Assembly (NCBI GenBank): GCA_965248445.1
Contig: CBDFJG010000001.1
Coordinates: 128,001 to 192,000 of the forward strand
DNA length: 64,000 nt
Direction: 5' to 3'
DNA from: Planctomycetota bacterium
Lineage (GTDB): Bacteria > Planctomycetota > JAJSAM01 > JAJVHW01
This document shows, piece after piece, positions 42,759 to 64,000 of this stretch; within the stretch, counting starts at the first letter, position 1, and each line of letters starts with the position of its first letter. The position numbers and the translations under genes were made by a program. The notes under the pieces were generated by a model, which saw nothing but the letters and a program-made list of their open reading frames with translations, did not search any database and had not been told where the DNA came from.

Positions 42759-43099
42759 TCCGTCCGCCGCCGCTCGTTCTGAGTCTCAATTCGAGAATCG
42801 GCTCAACCCGCGGTCGCTCCCCTCTCGATGCCACCAGTGAGGCATCGGTGGCACCAGGCTCACGCGCAGCGCGCGGGGTGTCGTCGCAGTCTCGGTAGAG
42901 ACCGAACGCGATGCCAGCCCAAGACCACACCCTGCCGTCCCCGGCAGGCGGCCTCCCGTGCCGTCTGCGGCGGATTCTCCGCGATTGCCCGTCAAGTAGT
43001 GGGGGTGGCGCTCCCGATCTTGTGGCGGGGAGGACGGTTCTCGGTCGATGCGCCTGGCGGGCGCGCGAAAGGGAGATCCGTGAGGTACCGAGCTACCTC

Positions 43100-45352: not shown

Positions 45353-47119
45353 TCACAGCGGAATACCGTACTCGTCCCAGCGCCGGTCCACGAGGTCCCG
45401 CGTGGCGTCGTCGACCTCCATGACCTCGGGGTACCACGGCTTCACACGGCAGTCCCAGACGACCGGCGCCTCGAGACCGACGTGGAAGCGAGCCACCCGC
45501 TCGCTCCGACCGTGAATGTCGCCCGCGGGTTCCATCCGCGTGAAGGTGGTCCAGAGGAAGAGCTCGGACGATGCCGTCGCCTCGTCGACGTCGTCGACCA
45601 GCACCACGAGAGGCCAGTCTGCGAACACGTCCTCGCGCGCGATCCGCGCGGCCTGCCCCTCTTCCTCGGCATACGGTCTCCCGCCGACGACCAGGCATCC
45701 GCGGCAGTACGGGCGCGCCGCGACGACGCCGCCGGGCAGTGTCCCGTCGAAACGCCGAGGCAACTCCCGAACCACCTCGCCGAGGCCGAGGAGCATGCCC
45801 TTGCTCCCGTGATTCACACGCGGGCCGGTGTAGTCGAGTGTGTCCTGTGCCGTCTGGCTCACGACGATGAGGTCCCGGCCCCAGTCCACGCGCTCGAGGA
45901 TCGTCTCGAGCACAGTGACGAAGTCGGTGAGATCGATCTCTTGATCCGTCAGGAACACGAACTTCTGCAGTGACAACTGGCCCTCGCCCAGGATCCGGAA
46001 GCCCGAGACGATCGCCTCCCGCGGGTAGCGGTCGCGCACCACGGCCGCGGCCAGGCTGTGAAAGCCGGTCTCGCCGTAGCTCCAGAGTTTGCGCACGCTC
46101 GGCATCACCAGCGGGAAGAGCGGCGAAAGCAGGTCCTGCAGGAAGTCCCCGATGTGGAAGTCCTCCTGCCGCGGCCGCCCCACCACGGTCGCCGGGAACA
46201 CGGCGTCCCTGCGGCGGTGCACGCGATCCACGCGGAACACGGGATAGTCGTGCGCGAGGCTGTTGTAGCCGTAGTGATCGCCGAACGGCCCCTCGGTGCG
46301 GCGCTGTCCCGCGAGGACACGTCCCGCGAAAGCGAACTCGCAGTCGGCAACGAGCGGATGAGGGGCCTTGCCGCGTACACGGCGCAGACGCTCTCCGAGC
46401 AGGAGACTCGCGAGAAGCAGTTCCGGCACGTCCTCCGGTAGCGGCGCGATCGCCGAGAGGATCAGCGCAGGCGGTCCGCCGAGGAACACGGTCGCGTGCA
46501 AGTCCTCGCCGCGTTCCTCCGCCGCCGCGTAGTGGAACCCGCCTCCCTTGTGGATCTGGAAGTGCATGCCTGTCTCGGCCGGGCCGTGCACGTGCATGCG
46601 GTACATACCGAGGTTGTGCTTCCCGGTCTGCGGATGCTCGGTGTACACGAGCGGCAGCGTGAGGAACGGACCGCCGTCGCTGTGCCACGACGTCAGCGCC
46701 GGCAGGCGGTCGAGCCGCGGCTCCTCCTCGATCTCCGTCACCGGCCCGCTGGACACGTCCTTCATGCCGACGCGCAGTCCGCCGAACAGCACGTCCCGGA
46801 AACCCCACAACTTCCCGGCCGTCGGCGGCACGAGTTGCTCCGCCATCTCGACGACGCGTTCGATGAACTTGCGCGGTCTCTCCCCGAACGCGAGGGCGGC
46901 GCGCTCCGAAGTGCCGAACAGGTTGGTCGCGACGGGCGTGTCGGCGCCCCGTGGATTGCGGAACAGCAGAGCCGGACCACCCTCATGGATCACGCGGCGG
47001 TGGATCTCCGCGATCTCGAGACGCGGGTCCACCTCAGCGGTGATCTCGAGCAGCTCTCCGCGGGGCCGCAGGAGGTCGAGATAGGCGTGGAGGTCGCGCA
47101 CGGGCGCCGGCGTGTTCAT
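45353..47119 (-). CDS. ubiD: UbiD-family prFMN-dependent decarboxylase (long form, possibly menaquinone/futalosine pathway)
   Basis: EVDPRLEIAEI, GGPALLF, DGGPFLT, NLGMYRM, EGPFGDHYGY, VVGRPRQED, DTLDYTG. Confidence 0.9.
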   Translation of the reverse strand: MNTPAPVRDLHAYLDLLRPRGELLEITAEVDPRLEIAEIHRRVIHEGGPALLFRNPRGADTPVATNLFGTSERAALAFGERPRKFIERVVEMAEQLVPPTAGKLWGFRDVLFGGLRVGMKDVSSGPVTEIEEEPRLDRLPALTSWHSDGGPFLTLPLVYTEHPQTGKHNLGMYRMHVHGPAETGMHFQIHKGGGFHYAAAEERGEDLHATVFLGGPPALILSAIAPLPEDVPELLLASLLLGERLRRVRGKAPHPLVADCEFAFAGRVLAGQRRTEGPFGDHYGYNSLAHDYPVFRVDRVHRRRDAVFPATVVGRPRQEDFHIGDFLQDLLSPLFPLVMPSVRKLWSYGETGFHSLAAAVVRDRYPREAIVSGFRILGEGQLSLQKFVFLTDQEIDLTDFVTVLETILERVDWGRDLIVVSQTAQDTLDYTGPRVNHGSKGMLLGLGEVVRELPRRFDGTLPGGVVAARPYCRGCLVVGGRPYAEEEGQAARIAREDVFADWPLVVLVDDVDEATASSELFLWTTFTRMEPAGDIHGRSERVARFHVGLEAPVVWDCRVKPWYPEVMEVDDATRDLVDRRWDEYGIPL

Positions 47120-47232
47120 CCATCGAGTCTCGCGCCTTCGGCTCACGGAGGCCAAACGTGCCTGGCGGGAGACTGCTGCCCGGTTTCGGCGTTCGGTTGC
47201 TTCCGGGCCTGAGGTGGGTCGATAATGCCCTC

Positions 47233-48147
47233 GTGGGAGAAGAACGGGTCTGCGCGCTCTGTCAGACGGTCAACGTGGCCGGTACGCAGCTCTGCATCGC
47301 CTGCGGATCGTCGTTCGCAGCCTCGCCGCCGTCGGTGGAGACCGCCGGCGAGGAGGACCTCGACAGCGCGGCCCGCCAGGCAACCGTGATCGAGGGCGCT
47401 GTGCCGGGAGGCGGGGTCGCGAAGCGAGCGGCCGCGGTCGTGGCGACCGCGGCCGAGGCCGCGCGACCGCAGTCACCGCCGGAGACCGAGCACGACCCCG
47501 TCGGTGCGCCAACGACGACCAAGTTCACAGCGCGGCTGCTGCTCCCGGACGGGGACCGGCGCAGTCTCGAACTCACCGACGCGACCCAGCTCCTCGGCTC
47601 CGGTCTCGACGACCTCGGCGTGACGGGCGACCCGCGCATCGGTTCCGGAGAAGCGACGCTCACGGTCGAGGACGGCGATCTGTACCTGACGCCGAAGCCG
47701 GATGCGCGCGGCATCTACCGACGGCTGCGCGGCGAAGAGACGCTATCGCCCGGAGACGTCGTTCTGATGGGTGACATCGCGGCCCGTTACGAGCCGCTCG
47801 AACCCTTGGCTCCCATCGACGACGGGCAGCAAGTGCTCGGCGGCGGCGCGAACTCGCCCGTCGGCCGGCTCGTGTTCCTGCGTCGGGACGGCACCGACGG
47901 ACCGGTGCACGACTTGCCCGCGGGCAAGACGATCATCGGAAGGACCGACGGCCATCTCAACTTCCCACACGACGGACGGCTCTCGCGCCGGCACGCGCGC
48001 TTCTTCGGGTCGGAGCGCGGAGTCACGATCGAGGACCTGGGGAGTCGCAACGGCACGTACTTGCGGCTATGGAGACGAGAGCGCCTGGACATCGGGGACG
48101 CGCTCCGCGTCGGGTCGGCCGGCCTGCAGGTGAAGTCCCGCAGCTGA
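47233..48147 (+). CDS. Zinc-ribbon + tandem FHA domain protein
   Basis: CALC...CIAC; degenerate first FHA; canonical second FHA IIGRT..LSRRHA..DLGSRNGTY. Confidence 0.85.
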   Translation: MGEERVCALCQTVNVAGTQLCIACGSSFAASPPSVETAGEEDLDSAARQATVIEGAVPGGGVAKRAAAVVATAAEAARPQSPPETEHDPVGAPTTTKFTARLLLPDGDRRSLELTDATQLLGSGLDDLGVTGDPRIGSGEATLTVEDGDLYLTPKPDARGIYRRLRGEETLSPGDVVLMGDIAARYEPLEPLAPIDDGQQVLGGGANSPVGRLVFLRRDGTDGPVHDLPAGKTIIGRTDGHLNFPHDGRLSRRHARFFGSERGVTIEDLGSRNGTYLRLWRRERLDIGDALRVGSAGLQVKSRS

Positions 48148-48188: not shown

Positions 48189-49970
48189 ATGCAAGCGACG
48201 CGGATGACGCGTTCGCGGTGCGTGGCGCTCGCAACGCTCGCACTCGTGCTGGGCTCCCTCGTGCTCCCCGTCACGGATCGCGAGGCGGCGGCCGTTGGAC
48301 CGCCGCTCACGACCGCCGACGTGGAGACACTGGTCTCGCGCTGTGTGACGTTCGCGCGACGCGCATCCAAGCGGCCTCTCTCGATCGCGGTCGTGGACAC
48401 CGAGGGCAACTCGCTCGGCGTGTTCCACATGACCGGGAGCAGCGGCTGCCGCGCCATCGCGCTGTCCAAGGCCGGCACGGGCGCGTACTTCAGCAGCGAC
48501 TTCGGGTCATTCACGACCCGCACGGCGGCGTTCATCATCCAGGACCACTTCCCGCCGGGGCTGCGATTCGCTCCGGGCGGGCCCCTCTATGGGGTGCAGT
48601 TCTCGAGCCTCGCCGCGAGTGACACGAACGCGATCTACTACCCGACGCCGCAGTCGCTGCCGTTGATGGAGGACTGCGACGGACTGCCGGAGATCGCGCA
48701 GGCGCGTGTGCGCGGAGACCTGGGCGGGATCGGCATCTACAAGGACGGCAAGCGAGTCGGTGGGCTCGGCGTCGACGACGGCAGCCGGAACCGCACCGTG
48801 ACGATTCCGCCGATCGCGATCACGGACCCGACGAAGGGGCATCGGATCACGTATCGCAAGCTCGAACGCGGCCGTCCGCTCGAGCGCGTCGTCATGGCCG
48901 CCGGCCGCGGCTTCCTTCCTGACCGCAAGCGACGGGCGACTCGAATCACGGTCGACGGCTTCCGGCTCACCTACAGAAAGCCGGCGAACCTCAAGAAGAA
49001 CGTCACGGCCCCGACGATCGTGCCCGGAGTCGATGGTGTCTGGGACACCGACTACCCGTTGCGCGACGCGGCGGTGCTGCCGTCGCGGTTCGTTCCGCTC
49101 ACCTTGGATCCCCCTGTCGGGTCCAGCGCGGAAGCGCAGCGCTTCCGCGGATCGCGTCCGGCCGCGTTCCCGATCCGCGCCAGCACCGACGGACTGCTCT
49201 CCGAGGCGGACGTGCGCCGCATCCTCTGGCAGGGAGCGCAGCGGGCGAACATCACGCGCGCCGCGATCCGCCGTCCGATCGGTCTCGCGATGCAGTGCTG
49301 GATCTCCGTCGTCGACACGAACGGCGAGGTGCTCGGCGTGTACCGCTCGCCGGACGCGACGCTGTTCTCCTACGACGTCAGCGTGCAGAAGGCGCGCACG
49401 ACCGTGCTCTTCTCGGACGAGAAGGTCGCGTGGAGCTGCCGGGCTCTTGGACAGCACGCCCAGCGCTTCTACCCCGCGGGTCAGCAGCAATCGGGCACCG
49501 GACCGATCTACCAGCTCCAGGACGGCCTGTCCGTAGGGCTCCTCACCGGATCGCTCGCCGTGGGCGGAAGCACGGACGCGCTGCTACGCAACGGCATCAC
49601 GATCTTCCCGGGCGGTGTACCGCTCTACCGCAACGGACAGGTGGTCGGCGGCGTCGGCGTCTCCGGCGACGGCGTGGATCAGGACGACCTCGTGGCGGAT
49701 TTCGCGTCCATCGGCCTGAGAGCGGCGCCGCCGATCCGCTGCGACCGAGCGGGTCCCCAAGCACTGAAGAACTCGCTGCTGCGCGCGCTGACACGGATCG
49801 AGGGCATCGTTCCCGCGGGTCCGCTGGCCGATCCTGTCGCAGAGACGGGCCTCCGGTTCTTGAAGGCGCGCATCCGCAACTCGCGCGGCCGCCTCGGGCG
49901 CATTCGGCTCACCGTCGGACCACCGTACGTGAAGCACCCCAGGCATCCGGGGCCCGTCACGATCCGATGA
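48189..49970 (+). CDS. Secreted heme-binding protein with two GlcG/HbpS-like domains
   Basis: Signal peptide; SIAVVDTEGNSLG..IALSKAGT..GGIGIYKDGKRVGGLGV and ISVVDTNGEVLG..VSVQKART..PGGVPLYRNGQVVGGVGVSG. Confidence 0.85.
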   Translation: MQATRMTRSRCVALATLALVLGSLVLPVTDREAAAVGPPLTTADVETLVSRCVTFARRASKRPLSIAVVDTEGNSLGVFHMTGSSGCRAIALSKAGTGAYFSSDFGSFTTRTAAFIIQDHFPPGLRFAPGGPLYGVQFSSLAASDTNAIYYPTPQSLPLMEDCDGLPEIAQARVRGDLGGIGIYKDGKRVGGLGVDDGSRNRTVTIPPIAITDPTKGHRITYRKLERGRPLERVVMAAGRGFLPDRKRRATRITVDGFRLTYRKPANLKKNVTAPTIVPGVDGVWDTDYPLRDAAVLPSRFVPLTLDPPVGSSAEAQRFRGSRPAAFPIRASTDGLLSEADVRRILWQGAQRANITRAAIRRPIGLAMQCWISVVDTNGEVLGVYRSPDATLFSYDVSVQKARTTVLFSDEKVAWSCRALGQHAQRFYPAGQQQSGTGPIYQLQDGLSVGLLTGSLAVGGSTDALLRNGITIFPGGVPLYRNGQVVGGVGVSGDGVDQDDLVADFASIGLRAAPPIRCDRAGPQALKNSLLRALTRIEGIVPAGPLADPVAETGLRFLKARIRNSRGRLGRIRLTVGPPYVKHPRHPGPVTIR

Positions 49971-51901
49971 GAACGCGGTGCGCCGCCTCCACTGTCGTCG
50001 TGGGGCTCGCTCTCGCCGCCTGCAGGGTCGTGCCGGTGGACGACAACCGCGCGCCGATGCCGTTCCGCATCGAGAGCGTGCTCGACGACTACGCCCGCCA
50101 GAACCCGGACGGCGCGGCGCCGCTCGCTCCCCCTACCCCCACAACCGCCCGGGCGACAACCCCGGACGGCCGCGCGGACGCGGACACGGCGCAGCGCCCC
50201 GCGGTGCGAGAGCAACTCGAATACGGACCGCTCGGGTACGCACGACCCGGCGATGCACCCGCGACGCGAACGCCCCGCGATCTCTTCGAGAACGAGTCGA
50301 CGCGGCCCGATCGGTGGCGGGTCGGCATGCCCGCATGGGAGCGCGGCTCGAAGTCCGACTCGCCGTACGACCAGGGTTCGTGGTGGGACCCCTACCACCA
50401 GAACGTCCTGAAGGGCGACTACCCGCTGCCGGGTACGCAGAACACGTTCATGCTGCTCGAGGCCACGTCGCTCAGCCTCGCCGAGTCGCGCAAGGTGCCG
50501 ACGCCGACGAGCGTGTTCCCGCGCGGCGCGAACGATGCTGCGTTCTTCGGGAAGCCACACCAGACGCTCCTCGCGGAGACGGTTCAGGTGACGCTCGACC
50601 TGTTCCAAGGTGAGACGGCCTTCAAGCCCGTCGACTGGCGCCTGCTGGTGCGGGGCGCGTTCAACTGGAACCACGCTACGGCCCGGGAGAACGTGGCGCT
50701 GTTCGCGGATCCGGCGCGCGGCGGACGACGCACGGATCGTCACGCGGCGTTGCAACAGGCCTTCGTGGAGACGACGATCGCCTCCGTCAGCGACAAGTAC
50801 GACGTCATCCAGGCTCGCCTGGGCACGCAGCAGTTCAACAGCGACTTCAAGGGCTTCCTGTTCCGTGACGAAGCGCTCGGGGCGCGTCTGTTCGGCAGCC
50901 TCGATGACAACCGGTGGCTGTGGAACGCCGCGTACTTCCGTCGCTGGGACAAGGACACGAACAGCGGCCTGAACACATTCGACTCGATCAAGCAGGACAT
51001 CTTCCTCGTCAACCTGTACCGCCAGGACGTGCTGCAGATGCTCCTGCCGCGCTCCGAGAGTAAGGAGTGGTCGAAGGGGCTCACCGCCCAGCTCTCGTAC
51101 CACCACTTCAGCGACGACGAGTCCGTGCACTACGACGAGAACGACTTCCTGGTGCGCCCGCGAGCCGTCGGCACCGTCGCGCCGAGCCGGCGCTCGATCG
51201 ACTACGTCGGGTTCAACATGGACGGTCACGTGGACCGCCTGAACATCACGTCTTCGCTGTACCACGCTTCGGGCAACGCGACTCTCGATGAGATCGCCGG
51301 CCGCGAGGTCGATGTCGACGCGATGATGGCTGCACTCGAGCTGTCCGTCGACGTCGACTGGATGCGCTTCCGCGTGTTCGGGTTCTACCAGCAGGGCGAT
51401 GAGGACCCGTTCGACGGCGACGGCGAAGGGTTCGACGCGATCTTCGATGCGCCGGTGTTCGCGGGTGGCGAGTTCTCGTTCTGGAACCGGAACACGATTC
51501 GTCTGACCGGGAGCGGAGTCGGTCTGATGCAGCGGTTCAGCCTGCTCAACTCCCTCCGCAGCAGCAAGGACCAGGGGGCGCCGTCCTACGTCAACCCGGG
51601 GCTGATCCTCGGAGGAGTCGGGTACGACGCTCAGCTGACCCCGCACATCAAGCTGATCACCAACGCGTCCTACCTGCGCTTCGACCACACGAATTCGATC
51701 CAGTACGTCCTGAACCAGGACTCCATCGGCAGTGAGATCGGCTACGACCTCTCTGCCGGTGTGGTCTGGCGTCCCTTGCTCACCGACAACGTGATCGTCA
51801 AGGGCGGCGTCAGTGCGCTCGTCCCCGGTACCGGTTTCCGCGACGTGTTCACGGCGGACACGCTCTACGCCGGCTTCCTGGAGGTCATCCTCACGTGGTG
51901 A
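49967..51901 (+). CDS. Putative outer-membrane beta-barrel protein with lipoprotein-type signal
   Basis: Lipobox LAAC; many alternating amphipathic strands; C-terminal YAGFLEVILTW with terminal aromatic; ATGA overlap with the upstream gene. Confidence 0.72.
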   Translation: MRTRCAASTVVVGLALAACRVVPVDDNRAPMPFRIESVLDDYARQNPDGAAPLAPPTPTTARATTPDGRADADTAQRPAVREQLEYGPLGYARPGDAPATRTPRDLFENESTRPDRWRVGMPAWERGSKSDSPYDQGSWWDPYHQNVLKGDYPLPGTQNTFMLLEATSLSLAESRKVPTPTSVFPRGANDAAFFGKPHQTLLAETVQVTLDLFQGETAFKPVDWRLLVRGAFNWNHATARENVALFADPARGGRRTDRHAALQQAFVETTIASVSDKYDVIQARLGTQQFNSDFKGFLFRDEALGARLFGSLDDNRWLWNAAYFRRWDKDTNSGLNTFDSIKQDIFLVNLYRQDVLQMLLPRSESKEWSKGLTAQLSYHHFSDDESVHYDENDFLVRPRAVGTVAPSRRSIDYVGFNMDGHVDRLNITSSLYHASGNATLDEIAGREVDVDAMMAALELSVDVDWMRFRVFGFYQQGDEDPFDGDGEGFDAIFDAPVFAGGEFSFWNRNTIRLTGSGVGLMQRFSLLNSLRSSKDQGAPSYVNPGLILGGVGYDAQLTPHIKLITNASYLRFDHTNSIQYVLNQDSIGSEIGYDLSAGVVWRPLLTDNVIVKGGVSALVPGTGFRDVFTADTLYAGFLEVILTW

Positions 51902-54900
51902 GCTCACGGATCGCGCTACCGGTCGCCATCGTCGCCCTCGCCGCGACGGGCCTCGGTGCATGCCTCGGCATCGGACGCTTCATCGACGATCTGCCGCCGC
52001 CGCCCGGCACGATCTGGACCTCGCACGCGCAACTCCCCACCACCAACGACGTGGACGCGGGTCTGATGTCGCAAAGCGCGCAGGTAGCGGACGAGAAGAG
52101 CGTCGGCTGCCTCACCTGCCACGATGGCGTCGAGAAGCCGCACGCATCGCAGATCGTGCGGCTCGGCTGCACGGACTGTCATGGCGGCGACGCCGTAGCG
52201 ACGACGAAGGAGCTTGCGCACATCAGTTCCGGTGACCGGCAGCGGGACAACGCGGCGACGACACCGGCGGACGACAACGCGGATTGGCTACGGCAGAGGT
52301 TCGAGTACGTCCGCTTCGTCAACCCCGGCGACCTGCGCGTGGCGGAGTCGACGTGCGGCCACTGCCACGAACAGCACACGTACAACACGCGCAAGAGCAT
52401 GATGGCGCACGGCGCGATGCTCTGGGGCGCAGCGCTCTACAACAACGGCAGCTTCCCACTCAAGCGTCCGCGGTTCGGCGCAGCGTACGACCGCTACGGA
52501 TTCCCGTCGCGCATCCGCACGGTTCCGCCGCCGACTGACGCCGAGGTGGCCCGCGGCGTGCTCGCATACCTGGATCCGTTGCCTCGCTACAACGTCACGC
52601 AGATGGGGAACGTCCTCCGCGTGTTCGAGCGCGGACAGCGGCGCCCCCTCGAGCTGGCCAACCCCAACGCGGAAGAGGAGGCCGGCCTGCCGGCCCGGCG
52701 CTTCAGCCAGCGAGGACTCGGCACGCTGCTGCGCACGGACCCCGTGTGGCTCGGCCTGCTGAAGACACGCTTGCTCGACCCAATGTTGTGGAAGCCGGGG
52801 ACGAACGATCACCCCGGCGACTACCGCCAGTCCGGATGCACTGCCTGCCACATGGTGTACGCCAACGACCGCGACCCCGCGCACTCCGGCCCCTACGCCG
52901 TGCACGGCAACCGCGGCCGCTACGCGGGCGGCGATCCGACCATCTCCAAGGAGGAGAGCGGGCATCCGATCTCGCATCGCATGACCCGCGCGATCCCGAG
53001 CAGCCAGTGCATGGTCTGCCACATGCACCCCGGCACGAACATGCTCACGACGTACTACGGCGACCTGTGGTGGGACAACGAGACGGACGGCGCGCAGCTC
53101 TACCACGGCGCCGGCCGGGAGCCGGATAGCGCGGAAGTCCACACGATCCAGCAGCGTAATCCGGAGGGCGCCGCCCTGCGCGGCCGCTGGAGCGATCCGG
53201 AGTTCCTCGCCGAGATCACCCGGCTGAACTCGGAACTGCGCAACATGCAGCTGTCCGACTACCACGGGCACGGCTGGCTGTACCGCAAGGTGTGGAAGAA
53301 GAGCCGCAAGGGTGACCTGCTGGACGCCGGTGGCAACGTCATCGACCCCACCGACCCGGAGAAGTGGAAGAAGGCGGTCCACCTGAAGGACATCCATCTC
53401 GAACGCGGGATGCACTGCGTCGACTGCCACTTCACGCAGGACGTGCACGGCGACGGGAAGCTCTACGGGGAGCCCCGAGCGGCGACGGAGATCACCTGCA
53501 TCGACTGCCACGGCACGACGCAGGCGCGCACCAACCTCGTGACGTCCGGGCCGGCCGGGGGAAACGACCTGCGCCAATCGCGGGTGGGCTTCGGCAAGCG
53601 GTTTTTCTACCGCGAGGGGCGGCTCTACCAGCGCTCGCAGCTCGACGACGACCTCCTGTGGATCGTCCCGCAGGTGATCGACTCCGTGGACCCGGCGCTG
53701 GCATCGGCGCAGTACACCGTCCCCGGCCGCCCGGCTCGGCAGATCTACAACGAGCGCGCGCGCTACGCCAAGACGGTGCAGAAGGACGGACGCACGTGGG
53801 GCGATGCATCCGCCGCCGGCTCGTTCGCCCACTCCGACGACGCGATGACCTGCCAGGCGTGCCACACGTCATGGACGACGTCGTGCTTCGGTTGCCACCT
53901 CCCCATGCAGGCGAACACGCGCAAGGACAGCCGGCACTTCGAGGGCGACCAGTCGCGAAACTGGGTCGGCTACAACTTCCAGGTGCTGCGCGACGCGGCG
54001 TACATGCTGGCCGTCGACGGATCCGTTACCGGGAACCGGGTCAGCCCGGCGCGATCGGCGTGTGCCGTCGTGGTCGGCTCGCAGAACCAGAACCGTGAGT
54101 GGATCTACTCGCAGCAGCAGACCGTCAGTGCGGAGGGCTTCAGCGGACACGCATTCTCGACGTACGTCCCCCACACGGTGCGCACGCGCGAGACCAAGCA
54201 GTGCACGGACTGCCACGTCTCCGAGGCCGACGACAACAACGCGATCATGGCGCAGTTGCTCTTACAGGGCACGAACTTCACGAACTTCATGGGCCGCTTC
54301 TGCTACGTGGGTTGCGGTGAGGCGGGCTTCTACGCCGTGGTCGTCTCGGAGCGCGACGAGCCGCAAGCCGTGTACGGGAGCACCCTGCACCGCGACGCGT
54401 TCCCGGATCGCTTCGCGCGCTTCGTCGAGCAGAAGGGGAGAAAGCTCGACGAGGCGTACCACCACGGAGGCACCGACACGCAGTCGCTCCAGCTCCGTGG
54501 CGAGTATCTCTACGCGGCCGAGGGCGCAGGCGGGCTGTACCTGTACGACGTCGCCAACGTGGACAACAAGGGGTTCAGCGAGCGCATCACGACTTCGATC
54601 ATCTCGCCGCTCGGCCAGCGCTTCTTCGTGGAGACGAAAGACGCGCGCTCGGTGGCCAGCCCCTCCACGCTCGCGATCGATCCGACCCGTCCGCAACGTC
54701 CCGAGAACGAGGAGCAGAGCGTCCACCCGCTGTACGCCTTCCTATACGTCGCGGACGCGCAGGAGGGGCTGATCATGGTCGGCGCCGCGTCGCTCCTCGA
54801 CGGCGATCCTGCGAACAACTTCGTAGAGCGCGACGTGGTGTTCAACCCGGACGGCCTGCTCGACGGCGCTCGATACGTGACGGTCACCGGGCAGTGGTGC

Positions 54901-55635
54901 TGGGTGGCCTGCGACCGCGGCCTGGTGCTGCTCGACCTCGGCGCGATCTCGCTGGGCGATCCCGCCCCCCGCGTGGCCGCCACGTTCGAGGACCTGAAGG
55001 GCGTGACCTGCGTGCAGGTGCAGTTCCGGTATGCGTTCGTCACGGATGCCGCCGGGCTGAAGATCCTCGACGTCACGTCGCCGGAGCAGTCCGCGGTCGT
55101 GGCGTCCGTCGCCATCGGGCCATGCAACGACGTTTACGTGGCACGAACGTACGCATACGTCTCCGCGCTCGAGAAAGGGCTCGTGATCGTTGACGTCGAG
55201 CGGCCGAGAGAGCCGGCGGTCGATCAGGTGTTCACGGCCGGCGGCGCGCTGAACGACGTCCGCATGTGCCGCATCGCGATGACGAACGCATCGCTGTTTG
55301 CATACGTCGCGGACGGGAAGAACGGCCTCCGCGTGCTCCAGCTCACCGCGCCCGAAACCGTCCCCCAGTTCGCCGGCTTCTCGCCACGGCCGATGCCGAA
55401 GCTGATCGCGACGTTCGAGACCCCCGCGCCCGCGAAGTCGCTCAGTAAGGCGCTCGACCGCGACCGCGCGGTGGACGAGAGCGGACATCAGATCGCGGTC
55501 TTCGGGCGACTCGGCGCCCGACCTCTGAACGCCGAGGAACAGCGGCGGCTCTACCTTCAGCGTGGCCAGATCTTCACCGTGCGCGACACGCCGCCGGAGA
55601 AGCCGCTGCCGAATCGCCGCCCCGACAGGCGATAG
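51898..55635 (+). CDS. Decaheme c-type cytochrome lipoprotein with C-terminal LVIVD-repeat beta-propeller
   Basis: Lipobox LGAC; 10 CxxCH (CLTCH, CTDCH, CGHCH, CTACH, CMVCH, CVDCH, CIDCH, CQACH, CFGCH, CTDCH); repeats YLYAAEG, YVAD, GLKILDV, GLVIVDV. Start at 51895 or 51898. Confidence 0.92.
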   Translation: MSSRIALPVAIVALAATGLGACLGIGRFIDDLPPPPGTIWTSHAQLPTTNDVDAGLMSQSAQVADEKSVGCLTCHDGVEKPHASQIVRLGCTDCHGGDAVATTKELAHISSGDRQRDNAATTPADDNADWLRQRFEYVRFVNPGDLRVAESTCGHCHEQHTYNTRKSMMAHGAMLWGAALYNNGSFPLKRPRFGAAYDRYGFPSRIRTVPPPTDAEVARGVLAYLDPLPRYNVTQMGNVLRVFERGQRRPLELANPNAEEEAGLPARRFSQRGLGTLLRTDPVWLGLLKTRLLDPMLWKPGTNDHPGDYRQSGCTACHMVYANDRDPAHSGPYAVHGNRGRYAGGDPTISKEESGHPISHRMTRAIPSSQCMVCHMHPGTNMLTTYYGDLWWDNETDGAQLYHGAGREPDSAEVHTIQQRNPEGAALRGRWSDPEFLAEITRLNSELRNMQLSDYHGHGWLYRKVWKKSRKGDLLDAGGNVIDPTDPEKWKKAVHLKDIHLERGMHCVDCHFTQDVHGDGKLYGEPRAATEITCIDCHGTTQARTNLVTSGPAGGNDLRQSRVGFGKRFFYREGRLYQRSQLDDDLLWIVPQVIDSVDPALASAQYTVPGRPARQIYNERARYAKTVQKDGRTWGDASAAGSFAHSDDAMTCQACHTSWTTSCFGCHLPMQANTRKDSRHFEGDQSRNWVGYNFQVLRDAAYMLAVDGSVTGNRVSPARSACAVVVGSQNQNREWIYSQQQTVSAEGFSGHAFSTYVPHTVRTRETKQCTDCHVSEADDNNAIMAQLLLQGTNFTNFMGRFCYVGCGEAGFYAVVVSERDEPQAVYGSTLHRDAFPDRFARFVEQKGRKLDEAYHHGGTDTQSLQLRGEYLYAAEGAGGLYLYDVANVDNKGFSERITTSIISPLGQRFFVETKDARSVASPSTLAIDPTRPQRPENEEQSVHPLYAFLYVADAQEGLIMVGAASLLDGDPANNFVERDVVFNPDGLLDGARYVTVTGQWCWVACDRGLVLLDLGAISLGDPAPRVAATFEDLKGVTCVQVQFRYAFVTDAAGLKILDVTSPEQSAVVASVAIGPCNDVYVARTYAYVSALEKGLVIVDVERPREPAVDQVFTAGGALNDVRMCRIAMTNASLFAYVADGKNGLRVLQLTAPETVPQFAGFSPRPMPKLIATFETPAPAKSLSKALDRDRAVDESGHQIAVFGRLGARPLNAEEQRRLYLQRGQIFTVRDTPPEKPLPNRRPDRR

Positions 55636-55745: not shown

Positions 55746-57311
55746 ATGCGCACCGCCGTCATCTCCATCGCCCTCTTGTTCGCCGCGGTCCCCGCGACGG
55801 TCGGGTCGCCCCCTGCGGTGTTCGCGGCGCCGGCCGAGCTCGACCGGGCGCGCGCCCTCGTCAAGGAGGCCCAGCCTCACGTTGAGAAGGCGATGAACCC
55901 GGACAACGACGCCGCCACGCGCAAGAAGGGCCGCAAGGCGGCGTACAAGCTGCTCAAGGAAGCGCGCCGCCTCTTCGACACGCATCTCGACTCGAACCCC
56001 GGCCAGACCGGCTCGCTGGACAGCGAGTACTGCTCGATCTCCTCGAACATCTACTGGATCAAGAAGTTCGCGACGCTGAACGAGTTCCGCGGAGCCGACA
56101 AGGACCGTCCGGTCGAGCTTCCCGGCACGAAGAAGGCCGAGGACACCGGCAGCGGGGGCGACGGAATCGGCGGCACGTCCAGCCGGGACGACCCGCCGGC
56201 GAAAAAGCCGCCCGTCGACGATCCCCCGCCGCACGACGACCCGCCACCTCAGCCCCCGACCGAAGACGATCCGCCCGACGAGGGCCCAACCGTCGTGAAG
56301 CCGCCCCCCGAGGATCCGGCAGTGCTGCGCGCACAGGAAGCACGCGACGTCCTCGAGGCAATCGAGGCGGAGGAAGCCAAGCGCCCGGGCGACGTCGCCC
56401 ACGCGCACGCGCTCTACGAGAAGTTCCTGTTCGAGTTCGACGATCCGACTCTTCCGGAGTACCAGAAGGCGGCTCTCAAGCTCGGCGCGCTGACCGATCG
56501 CATGAAGGTCGTGCTCAAAGAGGAGTCCGGCGTCGATCCGGACGACTTCGACGTGAGGGACAGCGCCGAAGTCACGCGCGTCGTCAAGAGTCTCACGAAG
56601 ATGCTGAAGAAGGGCAGCGACGAGGACCGTCGCAAGGCGGCAGAGCTCCTCGGCAAGCTCGGCACCGGCGCCGCCGGCTTCCCCCTCGTGAACGTGCTGC
56701 GGGACAAGGACCCCGAGGTCGCGCGGCTCGCGGCGGACGGGCTCGTCGCCATCGGCGGCCGGCGCGTGGCCGTGAATCTCACGAAGACCTACCGCGGCAA
56801 GAAGCCCGAGGCCGAGATGGCCGCGCTCGACGTGCTACGTCGCATCTGCGCGAAGGGCGACGTCGACGCACGCTCGGTCAGCGAGCAACTCGGCCGCTTC
56901 ATGCTGTCCAACACCTCGAAGGTTGCGGAGGGCGCGCTCGACGCGTTGATCGGACTGGGCGAGGCGGGCGGGCCCGGACTGTTGGAGGCGCTCGAGACGC
57001 GCAACGTCATGAAGCGAGTGGCGATCATGGAGGCACTCGGCCAGATCAAGTACTACAAGTCCGCCACTCAAATGACGCGCTTCCTGCTGCTCGGCGACGC
57101 GCAGAAGACCAGGATGCAGCGCAAGGCCGCGTTCGAGTCAGTGAAGGCCATGGGCAAGCCCGCCATCCCCTACTTGATCCCGGGCCTCAAGGACAAGCGC
57201 ACGAAGGGGTGGACCGCGAGGGCGCTGCGCGAGATCAGCGGCGTGACTCTCTCGTCGCGGCCGCGCGCGTGGCAGAAGTGGTGGGAGGAGAACGGCGGCG
57301 CGGCCGAGTAG
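55746..57311 (+). CDS. Secreted HEAT-repeat protein (paralog A)
   Basis: GGAGG SD; signal peptide; Pro/Asp linker; HEAT repeats; WQKWW terminus. Confidence 0.82.
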   Translation: MRTAVISIALLFAAVPATVGSPPAVFAAPAELDRARALVKEAQPHVEKAMNPDNDAATRKKGRKAAYKLLKEARRLFDTHLDSNPGQTGSLDSEYCSISSNIYWIKKFATLNEFRGADKDRPVELPGTKKAEDTGSGGDGIGGTSSRDDPPAKKPPVDDPPPHDDPPPQPPTEDDPPDEGPTVVKPPPEDPAVLRAQEARDVLEAIEAEEAKRPGDVAHAHALYEKFLFEFDDPTLPEYQKAALKLGALTDRMKVVLKEESGVDPDDFDVRDSAEVTRVVKSLTKMLKKGSDEDRRKAAELLGKLGTGAAGFPLVNVLRDKDPEVARLAADGLVAIGGRRVAVNLTKTYRGKKPEAEMAALDVLRRICAKGDVDARSVSEQLGRFMLSNTSKVAEGALDALIGLGEAGGPGLLEALETRNVMKRVAIMEALGQIKYYKSATQMTRFLLLGDAQKTRMQRKAAFESVKAMGKPAIPYLIPGLKDKRTKGWTARALREISGVTLSSRPRAWQKWWEENGGAAE

Positions 57312-57318
57312 CGAGAGC

Positions 57319-58893
57319 ATGATTCACCGCGCCGCGCTGCTTGCCCTCCTACTGCTTCCGGCAGTCACGCTGACGCAGGCCGTCGCACCGCGCACCGTTC
57401 TCGCCGCGCCCGCAGAACTCGATCAGGCGCGCGCGATGGTGAAGCAGGCGCAGCCCCACCTCGAGCTAGCGATGAACCCGGACAACAGTCCGGCCGACCG
57501 CAAGAAGGGACGGAAGGCGGCATACAAGCTGCTCAAGGAAGCCCGCCGGCTGTTCGACACGTACCTGGACGCAAGCCCGGGCCAGACCGATTCGCTCGAC
57601 AGCGAGTACTGCTCGGTCTCCGCGAACCTCTACTGGATCAAGAAGTTCGCCACTCTGAACGAGTTCAGGGGCGGCTCGGACGACCGCGTCGTCGAACTCC
57701 CTCCCGTCAAGAGCACCGGCGCCGGAGAAGACGACGCCGACGACGACGCGGGGGGAATCGGCGGCGCATCCGACACGCCGACGCCGCCGGTCGAGGACGA
57801 CCCGCCGGGCAAGGACGAACCACCCCCCGTCACCGACGAGCCTCCGCCGGCAACCGAGGACGAAGTCGTCGCTCCAGTGCTCGATGCGGAGGCACTACGC
57901 GCAACGCAAGCGCGCGAGGTGTTCGCGGCGCTCCAGCAAGAAGAGGCGCGGCGGCCCGCGGACGTCGCGCACCTGCACGCGCTGTACGAGAAGTTCCTGT
58001 TCGAGTACGACGATCCGACGCTGCCCGAGTACCAGAAGGCGGCGCTGAAGCTCGGCGCCCTGACGGATCGCATGCGCGTGGTGCTCAAGGAAGAGTCCGG
58101 CGTCGATCCCGACGACTTCGACGCGAAGGACAGCGCCGAGGTCACGCGCGTCGTGAAGCGTCTCTCCGACATGCTGCGGAGCAGGGAACAGGAGGACCGC
58201 CGCCGAGCCTCCGCACTGCTGGGCAAGCTGGGCAGCGGCGCCGCGGGCTTCCCGCTGGCGAAGGTGCTGTTCGACAAGGATGAGGTCGTTGCAAAGAACG
58301 CCGCCGACGGACTCGTTGCGATCGGCGGGAAGCGCGTGGCCGAGAACCTGACCAAGCTCTACCACGGCAAGAGCGCGGAACATCAGGCCGCTGCGGTCGA
58401 TGTGCTGAGCCGCATCTGCGCGAAGGGCGACGTCGACGGGCGCTCGGTCGCGCATTGGCTCGGACGCTTCGTGCTCTCGAACGACGACGCCGTCTCGGGT
58501 GCTGCGCTCACGAGTCTCGGTTCGCTCGGCAGAGCCGGAGTCGACGGGCTGCTCGAGGGACTCAAGACGAAGAGCACCGAAAAGCGGGTCGACGTCATCC
58601 GCGCGCTCGGCGACACGGGTTTCGTCCCGGCCACGCGGAAGATCGCGCTCTATCTGTTGCCGGGCAGCACGGAACGCGCTGGGATGCAACGCAACGCGGC
58701 CTTCGAAGCGCTCGACAAGTTCGGACTGCCGGCCGTGCCCTATCTCATCCCGATGCTGAAGGACGGCAAGCGCAAGGTCGAGATCCGCAATGCGCTCACC
58801 CGCCTGACCGGACAGCGCTTCTCCGCCGCCCGCCCCGGTGACTGGCAGAAGTGGTGGAAGCGCGTCGGCAGCAAGCAGGTCGAGTCGAAGTGA
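57319..58893 (+). CDS. Secreted HEAT-repeat protein (paralog B)
   Basis: Long blocks identical to paralog A (RKKGRKAAYKLLKEARRLFDT, YWIKKFATLNEFRG, DDPTLPEYQKAALKLGALTDRM). Confidence 0.82.
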   Translation: MIHRAALLALLLLPAVTLTQAVAPRTVLAAPAELDQARAMVKQAQPHLELAMNPDNSPADRKKGRKAAYKLLKEARRLFDTYLDASPGQTDSLDSEYCSVSANLYWIKKFATLNEFRGGSDDRVVELPPVKSTGAGEDDADDDAGGIGGASDTPTPPVEDDPPGKDEPPPVTDEPPPATEDEVVAPVLDAEALRATQAREVFAALQQEEARRPADVAHLHALYEKFLFEYDDPTLPEYQKAALKLGALTDRMRVVLKEESGVDPDDFDAKDSAEVTRVVKRLSDMLRSREQEDRRRASALLGKLGSGAAGFPLAKVLFDKDEVVAKNAADGLVAIGGKRVAENLTKLYHGKSAEHQAAAVDVLSRICAKGDVDGRSVAHWLGRFVLSNDDAVSGAALTSLGSLGRAGVDGLLEGLKTKSTEKRVDVIRALGDTGFVPATRKIALYLLPGSTERAGMQRNAAFEALDKFGLPAVPYLIPMLKDGKRKVEIRNALTRLTGQRFSAARPGDWQKWWKRVGSKQVESK

Positions 58894-61635: not shown

Positions 61636-63672
61636 TCATCGATGGAAGCGCCGGAGAGCGTGGCACTGCACGCACGCGGCGTGGTCGTAGGCCGGCCACA
61701 GCACGCTGGTGACCCGATCGGCTTCATCGACCGCCGCCTTGGTGTGGCAGTCTCCGCACGGCACGTCGGCGTGCCCGGCACTCGTGTGTCCGAAGCCCGG
61801 CAGGGCCGCCGTCGTCTTCCGTGCCGCCTTCGACCGTTCGAAGGGGCCCAGCTCGCTGTAGACGAAGAGCAAGCGCCCGTCCTTCCCACGGTTGCCCTCG
61901 AACTCGCGGTCCACGTGGCAGAGCACGCATCTGCCGGCCCCGACGTTCGCGTGGCGGGTGTGACACGCGGTGCAGTCGCGCGTTCCGGGTCGGAACGAGA
62001 CGCGCCCCGTGTCCGCCTCCGGCACGTGGCAGGACAGACAGCCGGACAGCAGCTTCTCGCGCTCGGCGAGCGAGCGTCGCGCGCCGGTCATCGCATCCGT
62101 CGGATCGACCGTGTGCAGGCTGTGGAACATGTCCACCACTGTCCGCGTGCCGTTGCCCGGGAGCGGACGCGGGTCGCCTCCCGAGTGGCACTCGCCGCAC
62201 GACGACGTATCGACGATCTCCACGCCGGCCAACGACTCCGACTTCGCGACAGCGGGGTGGCAGGCGACGCACTGCTCGGAGAAGACGAGACCGGTGCCCG
62301 GCGACGCCACGCCCTTCAGGTGATGGTCGTGGCGGAACGCGAGTTCCACCGGCGTGTCAGTGCGGCGGTCCGGAGTGATGTCGCGCACATGACACGTCCG
62401 ACACTCGTCGTTGCTCATGTCATGCCGTCGCGGCGGCACGGACCACATGCGGCCCGTCGCGGGTAGATCCACGGAGCGCAGATCGACGCCGACGTGATCC
62501 GGCGGCCCGGACCGCGCGTGACAGTCGGCGCACGCCGAGCCGTTGTCATCGCGCCCGTGAACGGGAACGGCCCAGTCAGCGTGACACTCGAGACACCCTT
62601 CGTAGTCAACAATCTTGAAGTCGGACCCCGCGGGGTCGCTGCGTAGATCGATGACCCGCGCCGCGTGACACGCCGAGCATTCGACGGGGAACGCACCGTC
62701 CGGCGCAGCCGCGGGTCCGCGACGTACTCGCGATCGCTGCTCCGCGATGCGGTGTTCCCGGTGGGAGAAGCCGTCCACGACGAGAGCGCGCGTGCGCGGT
62801 TCGCCCGCTCGGTCCCGCGCCGACCGTTCACCGGAGGCGCCTGGCTCGAGGACGCCGTGACAGCCGAGGCAGAACTCGCTCCAGCCGTCTTCGCCAGGGG
62901 CATCGCGTACCGGGATCAGGTCGGCATTCGCGCCGCGGTGGTCCTCGTGGCACTCGTTGCACGGGGTGTCGGCGGCGCGCCCGAACGGATGGAACTGCAC
63001 GTCGTCGTATCCCTCGTGGCAGGCAGCGCACTTGGGCGTGTAGTCGTCGGCGAGGGGATCGTGGCAGTCCGCGCACGATGCGGGCCCCTGCGCGTGCGCG
63101 CCGATCCGATGGTGCCACGCGAGCTCGCCCCGCGACTGCCACTCGGTGTCGATCAGGAACGGGACCGATGCGAATGCGCCGAGACCGAGCGCGCACGCGA
63201 TCAGAACGGAGCAACGGAGCACGGGGGAGCGTCCCCAGCGGTGCTCCTGGGGTCCCGACTCGACCAGGCGGAACGGCCGCGGCGGCTTCGCCTTCCGGAC
63301 AAGGGCATCGACGGCGCTGGATAGGTGCTGCTCGTTCGTCGTGACGGTGCACACGCCCTCTCCGACGTCCACGTCGATCTCGATCAGCGTGTGCCCCACC
63401 TGCACCACGGCGTTCTCCGGGACGCTCGTGCGCCCGTCGACCGCGCGGCCGTCGACGTAGACCCCCGTGAACTCATCGAGCGTCTCGACAGAGACGGAGG
63501 CGCCATCGAACACGAGGGCCGCGGCCTGCTGCGCGACCATGCGATCCGTCACGTAGATGTCGGCGAGCGGACGCGAACCGACGAGCAGCCGTCCACGCTC
63601 GACCGATTCGTCCTGGCGGGCGCGGTTCGGCCGCCCCTTCATCTTCCACTTGAGGACGAAGCGCGGCGTCAC
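61636..63672 (-). CDS. Membrane-anchored 15-heme c-type cytochrome (cytochrome c3-like modules) with N-terminal degenerate FHA domain
   Basis: GTG at 63672 overlaps the upstream stop; FHA-like GRLLVGSRPLADIYVTD...GVYVDG...VQVGHT; TM VLIACALGLGAFASVPFL; 15 CxxCH; FSHREH/FRHDHH/MFHSLH/FGHTSAGH distal-His motifs. Confidence 0.9.
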   Translation of the reverse strand: MTPRFVLKWKMKGRPNRARQDESVERGRLLVGSRPLADIYVTDRMVAQQAAALVFDGASVSVETLDEFTGVYVDGRAVDGRTSVPENAVVQVGHTLIEIDVDVGEGVCTVTTNEQHLSSAVDALVRKAKPPRPFRLVESGPQEHRWGRSPVLRCSVLIACALGLGAFASVPFLIDTEWQSRGELAWHHRIGAHAQGPASCADCHDPLADDYTPKCAACHEGYDDVQFHPFGRAADTPCNECHEDHRGANADLIPVRDAPGEDGWSEFCLGCHGVLEPGASGERSARDRAGEPRTRALVVDGFSHREHRIAEQRSRVRRGPAAAPDGAFPVECSACHAARVIDLRSDPAGSDFKIVDYEGCLECHADWAVPVHGRDDNGSACADCHARSGPPDHVGVDLRSVDLPATGRMWSVPPRRHDMSNDECRTCHVRDITPDRRTDTPVELAFRHDHHLKGVASPGTGLVFSEQCVACHPAVAKSESLAGVEIVDTSSCGECHSGGDPRPLPGNGTRTVVDMFHSLHTVDPTDAMTGARRSLAEREKLLSGCLSCHVPEADTGRVSFRPGTRDCTACHTRHANVGAGRCVLCHVDREFEGNRGKDGRLLFVYSELGPFERSKAARKTTAALPGFGHTSAGHADVPCGDCHTKAAVDEADRVTSVLWPAYDHAACVQCHALRRFHR

Positions 63673-64000
63673 TGCGATCCCAGCAGGTGATCGGGATCGA
63701 TGCGTTCGATCGCGCCGCACGGGCAGTTGTAGATGCACGCCATATCCGCCCGGCCGGCGCACATGTCGCACTTCACCGCGAGAGCCTTCGGCAGCTTCTC
63801 GACCTTGGCTTTCGGTTCCCCCTCGATCTTGCGCGGCTGCGGAGGCGACGCCGGCCGCTTGCGCAATCCGATGGTCCGGATCAGGCTCTCGAACACGGAC
63901 GGTTTCGCGACGGTGGCCGTGACGGCGACGCCAGTCTCGTCGAGTAGCGACTGCATGTGGATCGTGCCGTACGGGCAAGCGGGTTCGCACAGCGTGCATC
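63669..64000 (-). CDS. 4Fe-4S dicluster protein (DmsB/NrfC-like C-terminus), 5'-truncated by the window edge
   Basis: CTLCEPACPYGTIHM and AVKCDMCAGRADMACIYNCPCGAIERIDP. Confidence 0.88.
   Translation of the reverse strand, partial: CTLCEPACPYGTIHMQSLLDETGVAVTATVAKPSVFESLIRTIGLRKRPASPPQPRKIEGEPKAKVEKLPKALAVKCDMCAGRADMACIYNCPCGAIERIDPDHLLGSQ

Follow-up and report, generated by a model that had tools for sequence, protein, structure and literature searches.

Pairs of a porin gene and a multiheme cytochrome gene in metagenomes are often read as signs of extracellular electron transfer. In the MtrAB, MtoAB and PioAB systems a barrel gene lies beside the gene for a ten-heme c-type protein, which in the case of MtrA is a short heme rod. 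The MtoB and PioB barrels have 24-32 strands according to the available part of He et al. 2017 (PMC5566968), in which PCC3 has a very large porin with extracellular and periplasmic cytochromes carrying many heme repeats, and in which PCC4 is described bioinformatically only. The same holds for ptdABCDEFG in the accessible portion of its preprint (bioRxiv 10.1101/2023.11.21.568154), and by gene content PCC4 and Ptd are apparently the same kind of cluster. In Geobacter, the porin encoded within extHIJKLMNOPQS is dispensable for Fe(III) reduction (PMC5877670) and is tied to periplasmic multihemes acting on a small inorganic substrate (PMC5877670, PMC13510729; both sources available in part). The subject here is a trio of genes from a Planctomycetota bacterium (assembly GCA_965248445.1, contig CBDFJG010000001.1, positions 128,001 to 192,000 of the forward strand; this whole stretch of 64,000 nucleotides is the window), encoding a tandem HbpS-like protein (P0001), an outer-membrane barrel (P0002) and a decaheme-propeller lipoprotein (P0003). 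The trio is widespread, real and unstudied, and its predicted architecture is unlike that of Mtr. No published description of it was found in the open-access literature, although subscription papers or supplements could hold one. The trio and its parts are as follows.

48189..49970, + strand: P0001, tandem DUF336/HbpS-GlcG-like exported protein, 593 amino acids (PF03928 matches, EfgA/PduOC alignment)
49967..51901, + strand: P0002, outer-membrane barrel, 644 amino acids (from the predicted fold; without a Pfam family)
51898..55635, + strand: P0003, decaheme-propeller lipoprotein, 1245 amino acids (CxxCH count, LVIVD match, predicted fold)
52618..52734, + strand: heme-free loop of P0003, residues 241-279 (monomer confidence, complex model, ortholog/paralog alignment)
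52762..52785, + strand: KTRLxDP site of P0003, from K289 onward, which is CxxCH in aligned paralogs (alignment)
54283..55464, + strand: LVIVD beta-propeller of P0003, approximately residues 796-1189 (domain and fold match)

A sequence-only reading of the window had proposed three translationally coupled genes, and the open reading frames of 593, 644 and 1245 amino acids, each overlapping the next by 4 bases (ATGA at 49967, GTGA at 51898), bear this out. The three genes are spanned without differences by contigs from two runs of one sample, possibly the source. The source genome is 5.4 Mb with approximately 69% GC and is 92% complete. A scan for promoters and terminators gave signals at chance level only. 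Signal peptides and lipoboxes were called by eye and by regular expression, not by a predictor. In the labels used below G is a genome and L a locus, positions being counted within each, and G000 is the source genome.

The barrel, the decaheme protein and their predicted complex

The middle protein had been read as a barrel ending in W, and the structural model agrees. P0002 is predicted to have 18 long strands over residues 160-643 (predicted local distance difference test, pLDDT, 85.7), preceded by a lipobox-like C19 (LAAC19), a linker and a conserved periplasmic extension at residues 105-155, and followed by the C-terminal W. The last residue is W, F or Y in 116 of 119 barrel homologs. As a general rule for outer-membrane barrels, the periplasmic side is the one that carries the short turns and both termini. 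The strand connections on one side are 21, 14, 7, 6, 25, 4, 70, 18 and 12 residues long, the 70-residue connection being loop 7, and those on the other side are 9, 6, 4, 19, 2, 2, 4 and 7 residues. Conserved positions cluster in loops 4-5 and 7, in the turns on the periplasmic side and in the extension (115-156), and eleven Trp/Tyr positions of the barrel are conserved at 80% or more. A Cys-Lys/Arg start was seen in the 28 closest barrel homologs, and acidobacterial barrels often have a carboxypeptidase-regulatory-like domain in place of the lipobox-like Cys. The closest named relatives of P0002 are in Planctomycetota metagenome-assembled genomes.

The best fold match of P0002 is AlgE (Foldseek E 3.9e-16; Z 25.6, root-mean-square deviation 2.9, 366 residues aligned to 4xnk), followed by Occ channels (Z 21.8-23.9, the highest being OpdQ at Z 23.9), all at 9-14% identity (13-14% for AlgE). 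By language-model features the nearest named family is that of the alginate-export clusters (0.95). P0002 shares with AlgE and OprD (Occ) the 18 strands, the fold and a long loop 7, but differs in its periplasmic extension, in the lipid anchor of this family, in its cytochrome partner and in having no Pfam match: at E 0.01 it matched 0 Pfam and 0 NCBIfam families, and PF13372 (alginate export) was matched neither by P0002 nor by 8 further barrel-family members scanned. A sequence search of solved structures with P0002 returned nothing useful (best E 0.77). The absence of recognisable MtrA or MtrB sequence, also claimed earlier, stands. MtrB is not among the 50 fold matches listed for P0002, PF11854 (MtrB/PioB) has no match in the source genome, and TIGR03508 (MtrA/DmsE-family decaheme) is not among the 7 NCBIfam matches of P0003.

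P0003 is the decaheme lipoprotein with a propeller that had been described. It has exactly ten CxxCH motifs between residues 71 and 773 (at C71, 91, 153, 314, 371, 507, 534, 652, 663 and 769), a lipobox-like LGAC22 near the N-terminus, a match to PF08309 (LVIVD), weak c3/c7 matches and a modelled propeller of the 7-blade type. The best fold match of the propeller is 6-phosphogluconolactonase 6nau (Z 29.9, root-mean-square deviation 2.7, 295 residues aligned), tied with other 7-blade propellers, and fold searches with the 1195-residue P0003 model gave propellers alone. The hemes had been called widely spaced, which is so along the sequence only; in the model, residues 46-1240 form one compact unit (pLDDT 85.0, predicted template modelling score 0.89). 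The sole long internal stretch of low confidence in this monomer is at approximately residues 242-278. A sequence search of solved structures with P0003 reached E 0.004 at best, for one heme pair of an eight-heme nitrite reductase; an NrfA/ONR identity was considered and rejected because P0003 lacks CxxCK and was not matched over its full length. The Tenderiales LVIVD protein and Uet cluster (bioRxiv 2022.05.06.490989) were, from the accessible part of that preprint, judged different from the trio.

All ten heme motifs are conserved among the orthologs, heme 3 being CX4CH in 71 of 121 and CX2CH in 50. In addition, conservation reaches 97% or more at 14 non-motif His of P0003 and is complete at M169, K189, Y181, Y692 and Y737. 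Judged from the alignment, these conserved His, Met, Lys and Tyr exceed the ligand need of ten bis-His hemes. The source genome has a paralog of P0003 on contig C4, and ten more were taken from relatives. All 11 aligned paralogs have a CxxCH at the position that is invariably K289-T-R-L-x-D-P in the orthologs, 6 of the 11 have His in place of M169, and H329, H377, H456, H458, H495 and H680 are missing from every one. Because of these differences, the ortholog lineage is set apart from the paralogs by one heme fewer, a His-to-Met change and extra His. The KTRLxDP site and the extra His are candidate parts of an active site, and M169 may ligate an iron.

The low-confidence stretch is also where orthologs and paralogs diverge in length. 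The loop at residues 241-279 is 39-50 residues long in 121 of 121 orthologs. It is 28 residues in five paralogs, four of which adjoin a barrel-like gene unrelated to P0002, and 5 residues in the six paralogs that lie beside DUF1501-like and EF-hand genes, where no barrel was recognised nearby. In a single further case, the ortholog of G045, it is 21 residues; there the barrel gene lies on a different contig and no tandem HbpS protein is present. From these alignments, the length of the loop appears to track the barrel.

A complex of barrel residues 102-644 with P0003 residues 55-505 was modelled, the fragments being chosen for their conserved low-confidence segments. The complex score was 0.85, 0.85 and 0.86 in three of three runs, and 0.00 in the best of three controls. 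In the benchmark for this score, its mark was reached by 116 of 157 solved pairs and 2 of 215 mismatched pairs, which is a rough guide here, where own alignments were used. The runs share at least 55% of their contacts, with a partner pLDDT of at least 68. On the barrel the contacts fall in the extension (106-122), on the short-turn side (217-221, 276-282, 314, 419-428 and 458-467) and in the lumen (289-296 and 495-497). On P0003 they fall at 162-166, 186-209, 226-232, 250-264 and 411-415, and residues 254-262 make the tightest pairs. None of the interface residues listed belongs to a CxxCH motif; heme 3 (153-157) is the nearest along the sequence. The barrel interface is more conserved than the rest of the barrel (0.70 against 0.61). 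Recall of a like complex by the predictor is unlikely because neither chain has a solved sequence relative.

In the model, the cytochrome docks on the periplasmic face of the barrel and the heme-free loop enters the lumen as a plug, reaching loops 3 and 7. This docking architecture, taken alone, is quite probable, and that barrel and cytochrome bind each other is a prediction that the model supports. The sequence-only reading of a porin-cytochrome system survives in part: there is a predicted barrel, it is predicted to bind the cytochrome, and the pair is not of the Mtr or Pio type. The MtrAB-like crossing of the membrane by a heme chain that threads the barrel gains no support from the model, which covers P0003 55-505, was built without hemes and puts the heme-free loop in the lumen. 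The trio resembles MtrAB, MtoAB and PioAB in the adjacency of a barrel gene to a ten-heme c-type gene and in the predicted barrel-cytochrome complex, but differs in having 18 strands rather than 24-32, in a predicted lumen that holds peptide and not hemes, and in a 1245-residue globule with a propeller where MtrA is a rod. A plugged pore of this predicted kind would change the usual reading of such gene pairs.

The first gene of the trio had been read as encoding two GlcG/HbpS-like domains, and P0001 indeed has two stretches matching PF03928 (84 bits against a cut-off of 25, E 1e-23). When domain 2 is aligned to EfgA (6bws), K401, S492 and D499 correspond to EfgA K57, S114 and D121, the numbering on 6bws assuming a 20-residue tag offset inferred from the chain length. 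These EfgA residues hold formaldehyde derivatives (PMC8153426, in the part available). In the aligned HbpS-like proteins K401 is kept in 42 of 42, S492 in 42 of 42 and D499 in 40 of 42, whereas domain 1 of the P0001 type is degenerate, with the Ser lost and the Lys often lost. The heme ligand of PduOC is H18 (PMC4923194, also available in part); at this position domain 2 of P0001 has A353, with no His, and the only conserved His of the P0001 family is H120 (27 of 29). Because the triad is kept and A353 replaces the heme-ligand His, a small-ligand pocket in P0001 has, at the level of sequence, more support than heme binding. As many DUF336 proteins share the triad, it does not name the ligand. 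P0001 belongs to the fold family of EfgA, HbpS, PduOC and GlcG and keeps the EfgA pocket in domain 2, but it differs from them in having two domains in one exported chain, large insertions and no His at the PduOC heme site. By eye, most of the alphaproteobacterial HbpS-like members printed have a lipobox-like Cys start, and P0001 has a plain signal. In locus L008 (6579-9608, - strand) the HbpS-like partner is fused to FG-GAP and dockerin domains in a frame of 1009 amino acids.

Distribution of the trio and the inner electron chain

A search with the cytochrome found at least 7993 clusters at 90% identity (7993 matches of 7999 candidates scored), paralogs included, and a search with the barrel at least 1565 matches of 7996 candidates scored. 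At E 1e-10, a profile of the barrel hit 1615 representatives of clusters formed at 50% identity. From named genomes 41 barrel loci were taken, including planctomycetes, sphingomonads and other proteobacteria, a myxococcal genome, an acidobacterium and others. The decaheme gene is downstream of the barrel gene in 35 of these; 5 loci end within 340 bases of the barrel, leaving 36 that are informative. In 33 of the 41 the HbpS gene lies upstream of the barrel on its strand, in 6 it is divergent and in 2 it was not seen; 32 loci have all three genes in order.

Of 61 relatives, the same 13 have both the barrel and the decaheme ortholog, and 12 of these 13 have the tandem HbpS protein. Set aside here were 5 weak HbpS matches (E 3.5e-7 or weaker) and 14 weak cytochrome matches (E 1.5e-24 or weaker), judged to be single domains and paralogs respectively. 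In 81 genomes of the acidobacterial phylum of L011 (Thermoanaerobaculia), barrel and decaheme are in the same 11, always adjacent, and the HbpS protein is in those 11 plus one other genome. Pooled, 23 of 24 barrel-decaheme carriers have the tandem HbpS protein. These counts are tallies and not tests, as related genomes are not independent. The expectation that the genes would be conserved together is upheld by this linkage across several phyla. Cultured carriers include Novosphingobium malaysiense and Sphingobium herbicidovorans MH, and the RefSeq plasmid record of the latter holds the full gene set under generic names only.

Other neighbours recur in the 41 loci: 25 have a c554-like 4/5-heme protein, 22 an FHA-anchored decaheme, 21 an FAD/NAD(P)-cyclic nucleotide (cNMP)-binding-4Fe-4S protein, 21 a membrane protein and 19 a metallophosphoesterase, while a CHASE2 cyclase (9 loci), a large exoprotein (8) and a TpsB transporter (4) are less frequent. 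In 22 of the loci there is a gene for a cyclase or a phosphodiesterase. The membrane protein, putatively a di-heme-b protein, carries a pair of WX3HX13H motifs in all 20 aligned members, the source copy included, and SGxxG in 19 of the 20, and is found in 13 of 13 and 11 of 11 barrel-decaheme carriers. The two WX3HX13H motifs are a signature of PCC3 and PCC4, and HX13H motifs are linked to ferric-reductase domains (PMC5566968, in the part available). The cNMP-Fe-S protein is fused to a TrxR-like FAD domain in homologs scanned from L017, L021 and L094. In the planctomycete G018 the input module is instead NuoEF-like and NuoG-like 2Fe-2S proteins beside a soluble-transhydrogenase-like flavoprotein. 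The c554-like 4/5-heme profile matches the tetraheme position of PCC4-type loci (8e-15 and 1e-25). Heme-copper oxidase family genes are present in 5 of 5 carriers checked.

In the source genome the inner genes start 6 kb downstream of the trio on the opposite strand, in the order FHA-15-heme protein, cNMP-Fe-S protein, membrane protein, 18-heme cytochrome, FHA protein, FHA-GAF-cyclase and class II-like phosphodiesterase. The first of these, and the gene immediately upstream of the trio, lie within the window as follows.

47158..48147, + strand: FHA-domain protein, 41 bp upstream of the P0001 gene
61636..63672, - strand: FHA/YscD-like domain with a membrane anchor and a 15-CxxCH cytochrome, corresponding to the FHA-decaheme (PtdG-like) in the inner chain
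63669..64000, - strand: 3' end of the cNMP-binding/4Fe-4S gene (PtdE-like), which runs past the window to G000:C1:193461, is frameshifted and has no FAD domain

The FHA gene at 47158..48147 is also upstream of the trio in L001-L004, the four closest of the 41 loci, and FHA gene and trio are likely one operon in that family only.

This inner chain is where the locus meets PCC4/Ptd. Shared with these, as far as their accessible descriptions go, are the membrane protein with two WX3HX13H motifs and SGxxG, a cNMP-binding Fe-S protein, a porin beside a periplasmic multiheme, the lack of an extracellular cytochrome and, in part of the trio loci, an FAD/NAD(P) oxidoreductase, a decaheme and a c554-like 4/5-heme cytochrome. 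The PtdE-like protein is the one counted above in 21 of the 41 trio loci. Those descriptions differ from the trio in an outer module made of a pentaheme with a beta-sandwich (PtdA) and its own porin (PtdB), and in their accessible parts neither a decaheme-propeller nor an HbpS protein appears. The porin of L083, a locus assigned to the PCC4/Ptd type by gene order, has no detectable homology to P0002 (hhalign probability 0.2%), nor has its pentaheme to P0003 (16% over 36 columns), although the published accession lists may include members of the trio family. L083 itself is a textbook cluster in PCC4/Ptd order from an acidobacterial-phylum genome, with genes for a pentaheme, a porin, an 8-heme protein, an Fe-S protein, the membrane protein, an FHA-decaheme and a flavoprotein, and L078, from a planctomycete-phylum genome, is a partial one.

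Where the membrane protein occurs without the trio, it is often beside other outer heads such as the pentaheme-porin pair of L083, or beside cytochromes of 16-51 hemes, some with other barrel-like genes. In L084 and L087 single proteins with 51 heme motifs adjoin it, which is PCC3-like. The trio differs from PCC3 in its 18 strands and 10 hemes, and the barrel-like gene of L085, a PCC3-like locus by gene content, has no homology to P0002 (probability 0.2%).

P0003 is partly similar to ExtM (E 4.5e-27), ExtN and ExtO, and the C4 paralog matches ExtM at E 2e-57, but P0003 does not reach the ExtM cut-off (NF040943, 94.6 bits against 800). The trio differs from the Geobacter Ext cluster in having another barrel and no rhodanese, Rieske or selenocysteine enzyme, and in carriers with oxygen-reductase-family genes. 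By analogy, the Ext cluster is nonetheless the nearest functional comparison for the trio.

NOX, FRE and MsrQ systems pass from a flavoprotein to a di-heme-b membrane protein, with the regulatory domain on the cytoplasmic side. The inner chain is like these in pairing a flavoprotein with such a membrane protein and a cytoplasmic regulatory domain, but it goes on through multihemes to the outer-membrane complex and has cNMP and FHA domains instead of EF-hands. On sequence comparison, the inner chain appears to work like, and in part to be, that of PCC4/Ptd, and the trio is, by these comparisons, a new outer module outside Mtr/Pio, PCC3, PCC4/Ptd, Ext and AlgE. The earlier proposal of a distinct complex fits the outer trio, which lies outside Mtr, Pio and PCC4, but it overlooked the inner chain, described bioinformatically as PCC4/Ptd, to which the trio is the outer part. 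To the PCC4/Ptd inner chain this adds another outer head and, with the cNMP and FHA domains, a putative level of regulation.

A possible pore-coupled reductase and its rivals

The reading preferred here, held at somewhat under an even chance, is that the system is a periplasmic reductase coupled to a pore, supplied with electrons from NAD(P)H and controlled by cyclic nucleotides. The 18-strand barrel and P0003 would form an outer-membrane complex, with P0003 hanging on the periplasmic face, and the heme-free loop would plug the pore, which is likely to be a gated channel delivering a small molecule to the reductase. Electrons would likely pass from cytoplasmic NAD(P)H (or ferredoxin) to the cNMP-binding Fe-S protein, then to the di-heme-b membrane protein, and onward via membrane-anchored multiheme cytochromes to the outer complex. 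This flow is likely to be switched by cyclic nucleotides and phosphorylation, given the cNMP, cyclase, phosphodiesterase and FHA domains. Reduction would happen at the His-rich site of P0003 under the pore, and the tandem HbpS-like protein would likely bind the substrate or product in its EfgA-type pocket. A catalytic role for P0003 is favoured because of its surplus of conserved ligands and the six His absent from all 11 paralogs, and a small-solute pore because the fold neighbours AlgE and OpdQ are small-solute channels. Quinone-type shuttles, metal chelates and small carbonyl or N-O compounds are candidate substrates. The outward direction, the regulation, the part played by the HbpS-like protein and the catalysis are all putative.

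A fuller version, in which a second-messenger-gated line runs from NAD(P)H to the outer membrane, with a plug-gated pore, one heme given up, a His-rich site and interchangeable heads, is rather doubtful as a whole. If true, it would be a bacterial counterpart of the regulated NADPH oxidase/reductase in hundreds of soil and water aerobes, with outer heads (the trio, PCC4/Ptd, PCC3-like) swapped on the same chain. Predictions at the level of residues (loop 241-279, M169, H456/H458 and K401/S492/D499) are testable in the cultured sphingomonads.

Several observations weigh against the reductase. The complex model lacks hemes and covers P0003 55-505 only, so that hemes 6-10 and the propeller are outside it, and the P0003 interface is less conserved on average than the rest of the fragment (0.56 against 0.70). 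Locus L009, with full flanks, has a barrel without a decaheme downstream. The di-heme-b membrane protein is not specific to the trio, since 10 of 48 and 12 of 70 non-carriers (22 of 118) have it as well. The cNMP-Fe-S gene of the source genome lacks the FAD domain and has a one-base frameshift in its ferredoxin part, at approximately G000:C1 192050 (L042, approximately 6045, minus strand), just past the window, which all 4 contig sets of one sample share; nor was a homolog of the usual 4/5-heme partner found in this 92% complete genome. The source copy of the inner chain may be idle, impaired or differently wired. Finally, in the accessible part of PMC5566968, He et al. drew the homologous inner chain as running inward.

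This last point leads to the first rival, in which the same complex is reversed, a small molecule being oxidised at the decaheme with electrons passing inward to the quinone pool or NAD(P)+. It is an unlikely reading, though it shares the structural model. The EfgA-type pocket binds an aldehyde, which is an oxidisable substrate, and the heme-copper oxidase family genes of the five carriers would fit. However, no catabolic genes are conserved nearby in the 41 loci, and the membrane protein has the two ferric-reductase/NOX HX13H motifs (20 of 20) and is tied to NAD(P)H-binding flavoproteins. The NOX/FRE type of flavoprotein-membrane pairing runs outward. The inward model of the homologous membrane protein, which He et al. 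treat as quinone-active and fed from an outside donor (PMC5566968, in the part available), remains in favour of reversal.

Slightly less probable is a direct conduit, with part of the heme chain inside the barrel exchanging electrons with minerals, humics or electrodes. The adjacency of barrel and multiheme in 35 of 36 informative loci is what such a conduit would give, and related clusters that use this inner chain have very large multihemes accompanied by other barrel-like genes. Hemes 6-10 also lay outside the complex model. Set against this are the 18 strands, compared with 24-32 for MtoB and PioB, the 70-residue loop 7, the heme-free loop that fills the lumen in the model and the single compact globule with its propeller that P0003 is predicted to form, together with the lack of a conserved extracellular partner cytochrome in the cassette.

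An envelope sensor, in which a ligand that comes in through the pore or is held by the HbpS-like protein shifts the plug or the heme redox state and this is read inside by the cNMP and FHA proteins and the cyclase, is given the same low probability as the conduit. Approximately 25 c-hemes, two b-hemes, Fe-S clusters and a flavoprotein would be a large outlay for a signal, and the cNMP-binding domains sit on a redox protein, which makes it the target of a signal and not its source. The cassette has no conserved kinase or regulator, and the PduOC heme-ligand His is missing. It is true that HbpS and EfgA are sensors (PMC8153426, in the part available), that CHASE2 or FHA-GAF cyclases, phosphodiesterases and FHA proteins recur in the loci, and that the plug is flexible when alone. 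Least probable is an AlgE-like exit pore for a polysaccharide or another polymer, with the decaheme-propeller oxidising or cross-linking the polymer on exit, since the AlgE fold match and alginate-export feature score on its side are met by the lack of a PF13372 match, the 13-14% identity, Occ channels within 2 Z units, a lumen predicted to be plugged and no glycosyltransferase or polymerase gene conserved in the 41 loci.

Paralogous systems and neighbouring genes

The short-loop ortholog of G045 (L072, L073) is also without H329, H456 and Y737. The paralog in the source genome (G000:C4:1366154-1369195; L043 8155-11184, minus strand) is flanked by a Tat-signal DUF1501-like gene and an EF-hand gene. 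This set of DUF1501-like, ten-heme-propeller and EF-hand genes recurs in 5 more planctomycete loci; no barrel was recognised nearby, and the set is a second unstudied system. A second group of paralogs, with 11 hemes (L062-L066), is near c3-type multihemes and has the P0002-unrelated barrel-like gene in 4 of 5 loci; in 4 of these 5 genomes the di-heme-b membrane protein is on the same contig, making this a further outer head. Despite the lack of an MtrB/PioB match, the source genome also encodes a 14-CxxCH exported cytochrome elsewhere (G000:C3:204353-205705).

In sphingomonads (L019-L031, L076), the region upstream of the cassette often encodes a 2,000-residue exoprotein that has no Pfam family, along with a TpsB transporter and a CHASE2 cyclase, which suggests a surface-sensing input.

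Directly 3' of the trio in the window are two tandem paralogous exported HEAT-repeat proteins with Pro/Asp-rich linkers (55746-57311 and 57319-58893, both + strand), which are not among the conserved neighbours. On the other side, a UbiD-family decarboxylase (45353-47155, - strand) is divergent from the FHA gene, an arrangement also seen in L001-L004. Further upstream is a large TPR protein (38794-42758, + strand), apparently split over two frames (38794-41055 and 40380-42758), which is followed by a PEP-CTERM protein (42911-43849) and then a sulfotransferase (43862-44665).

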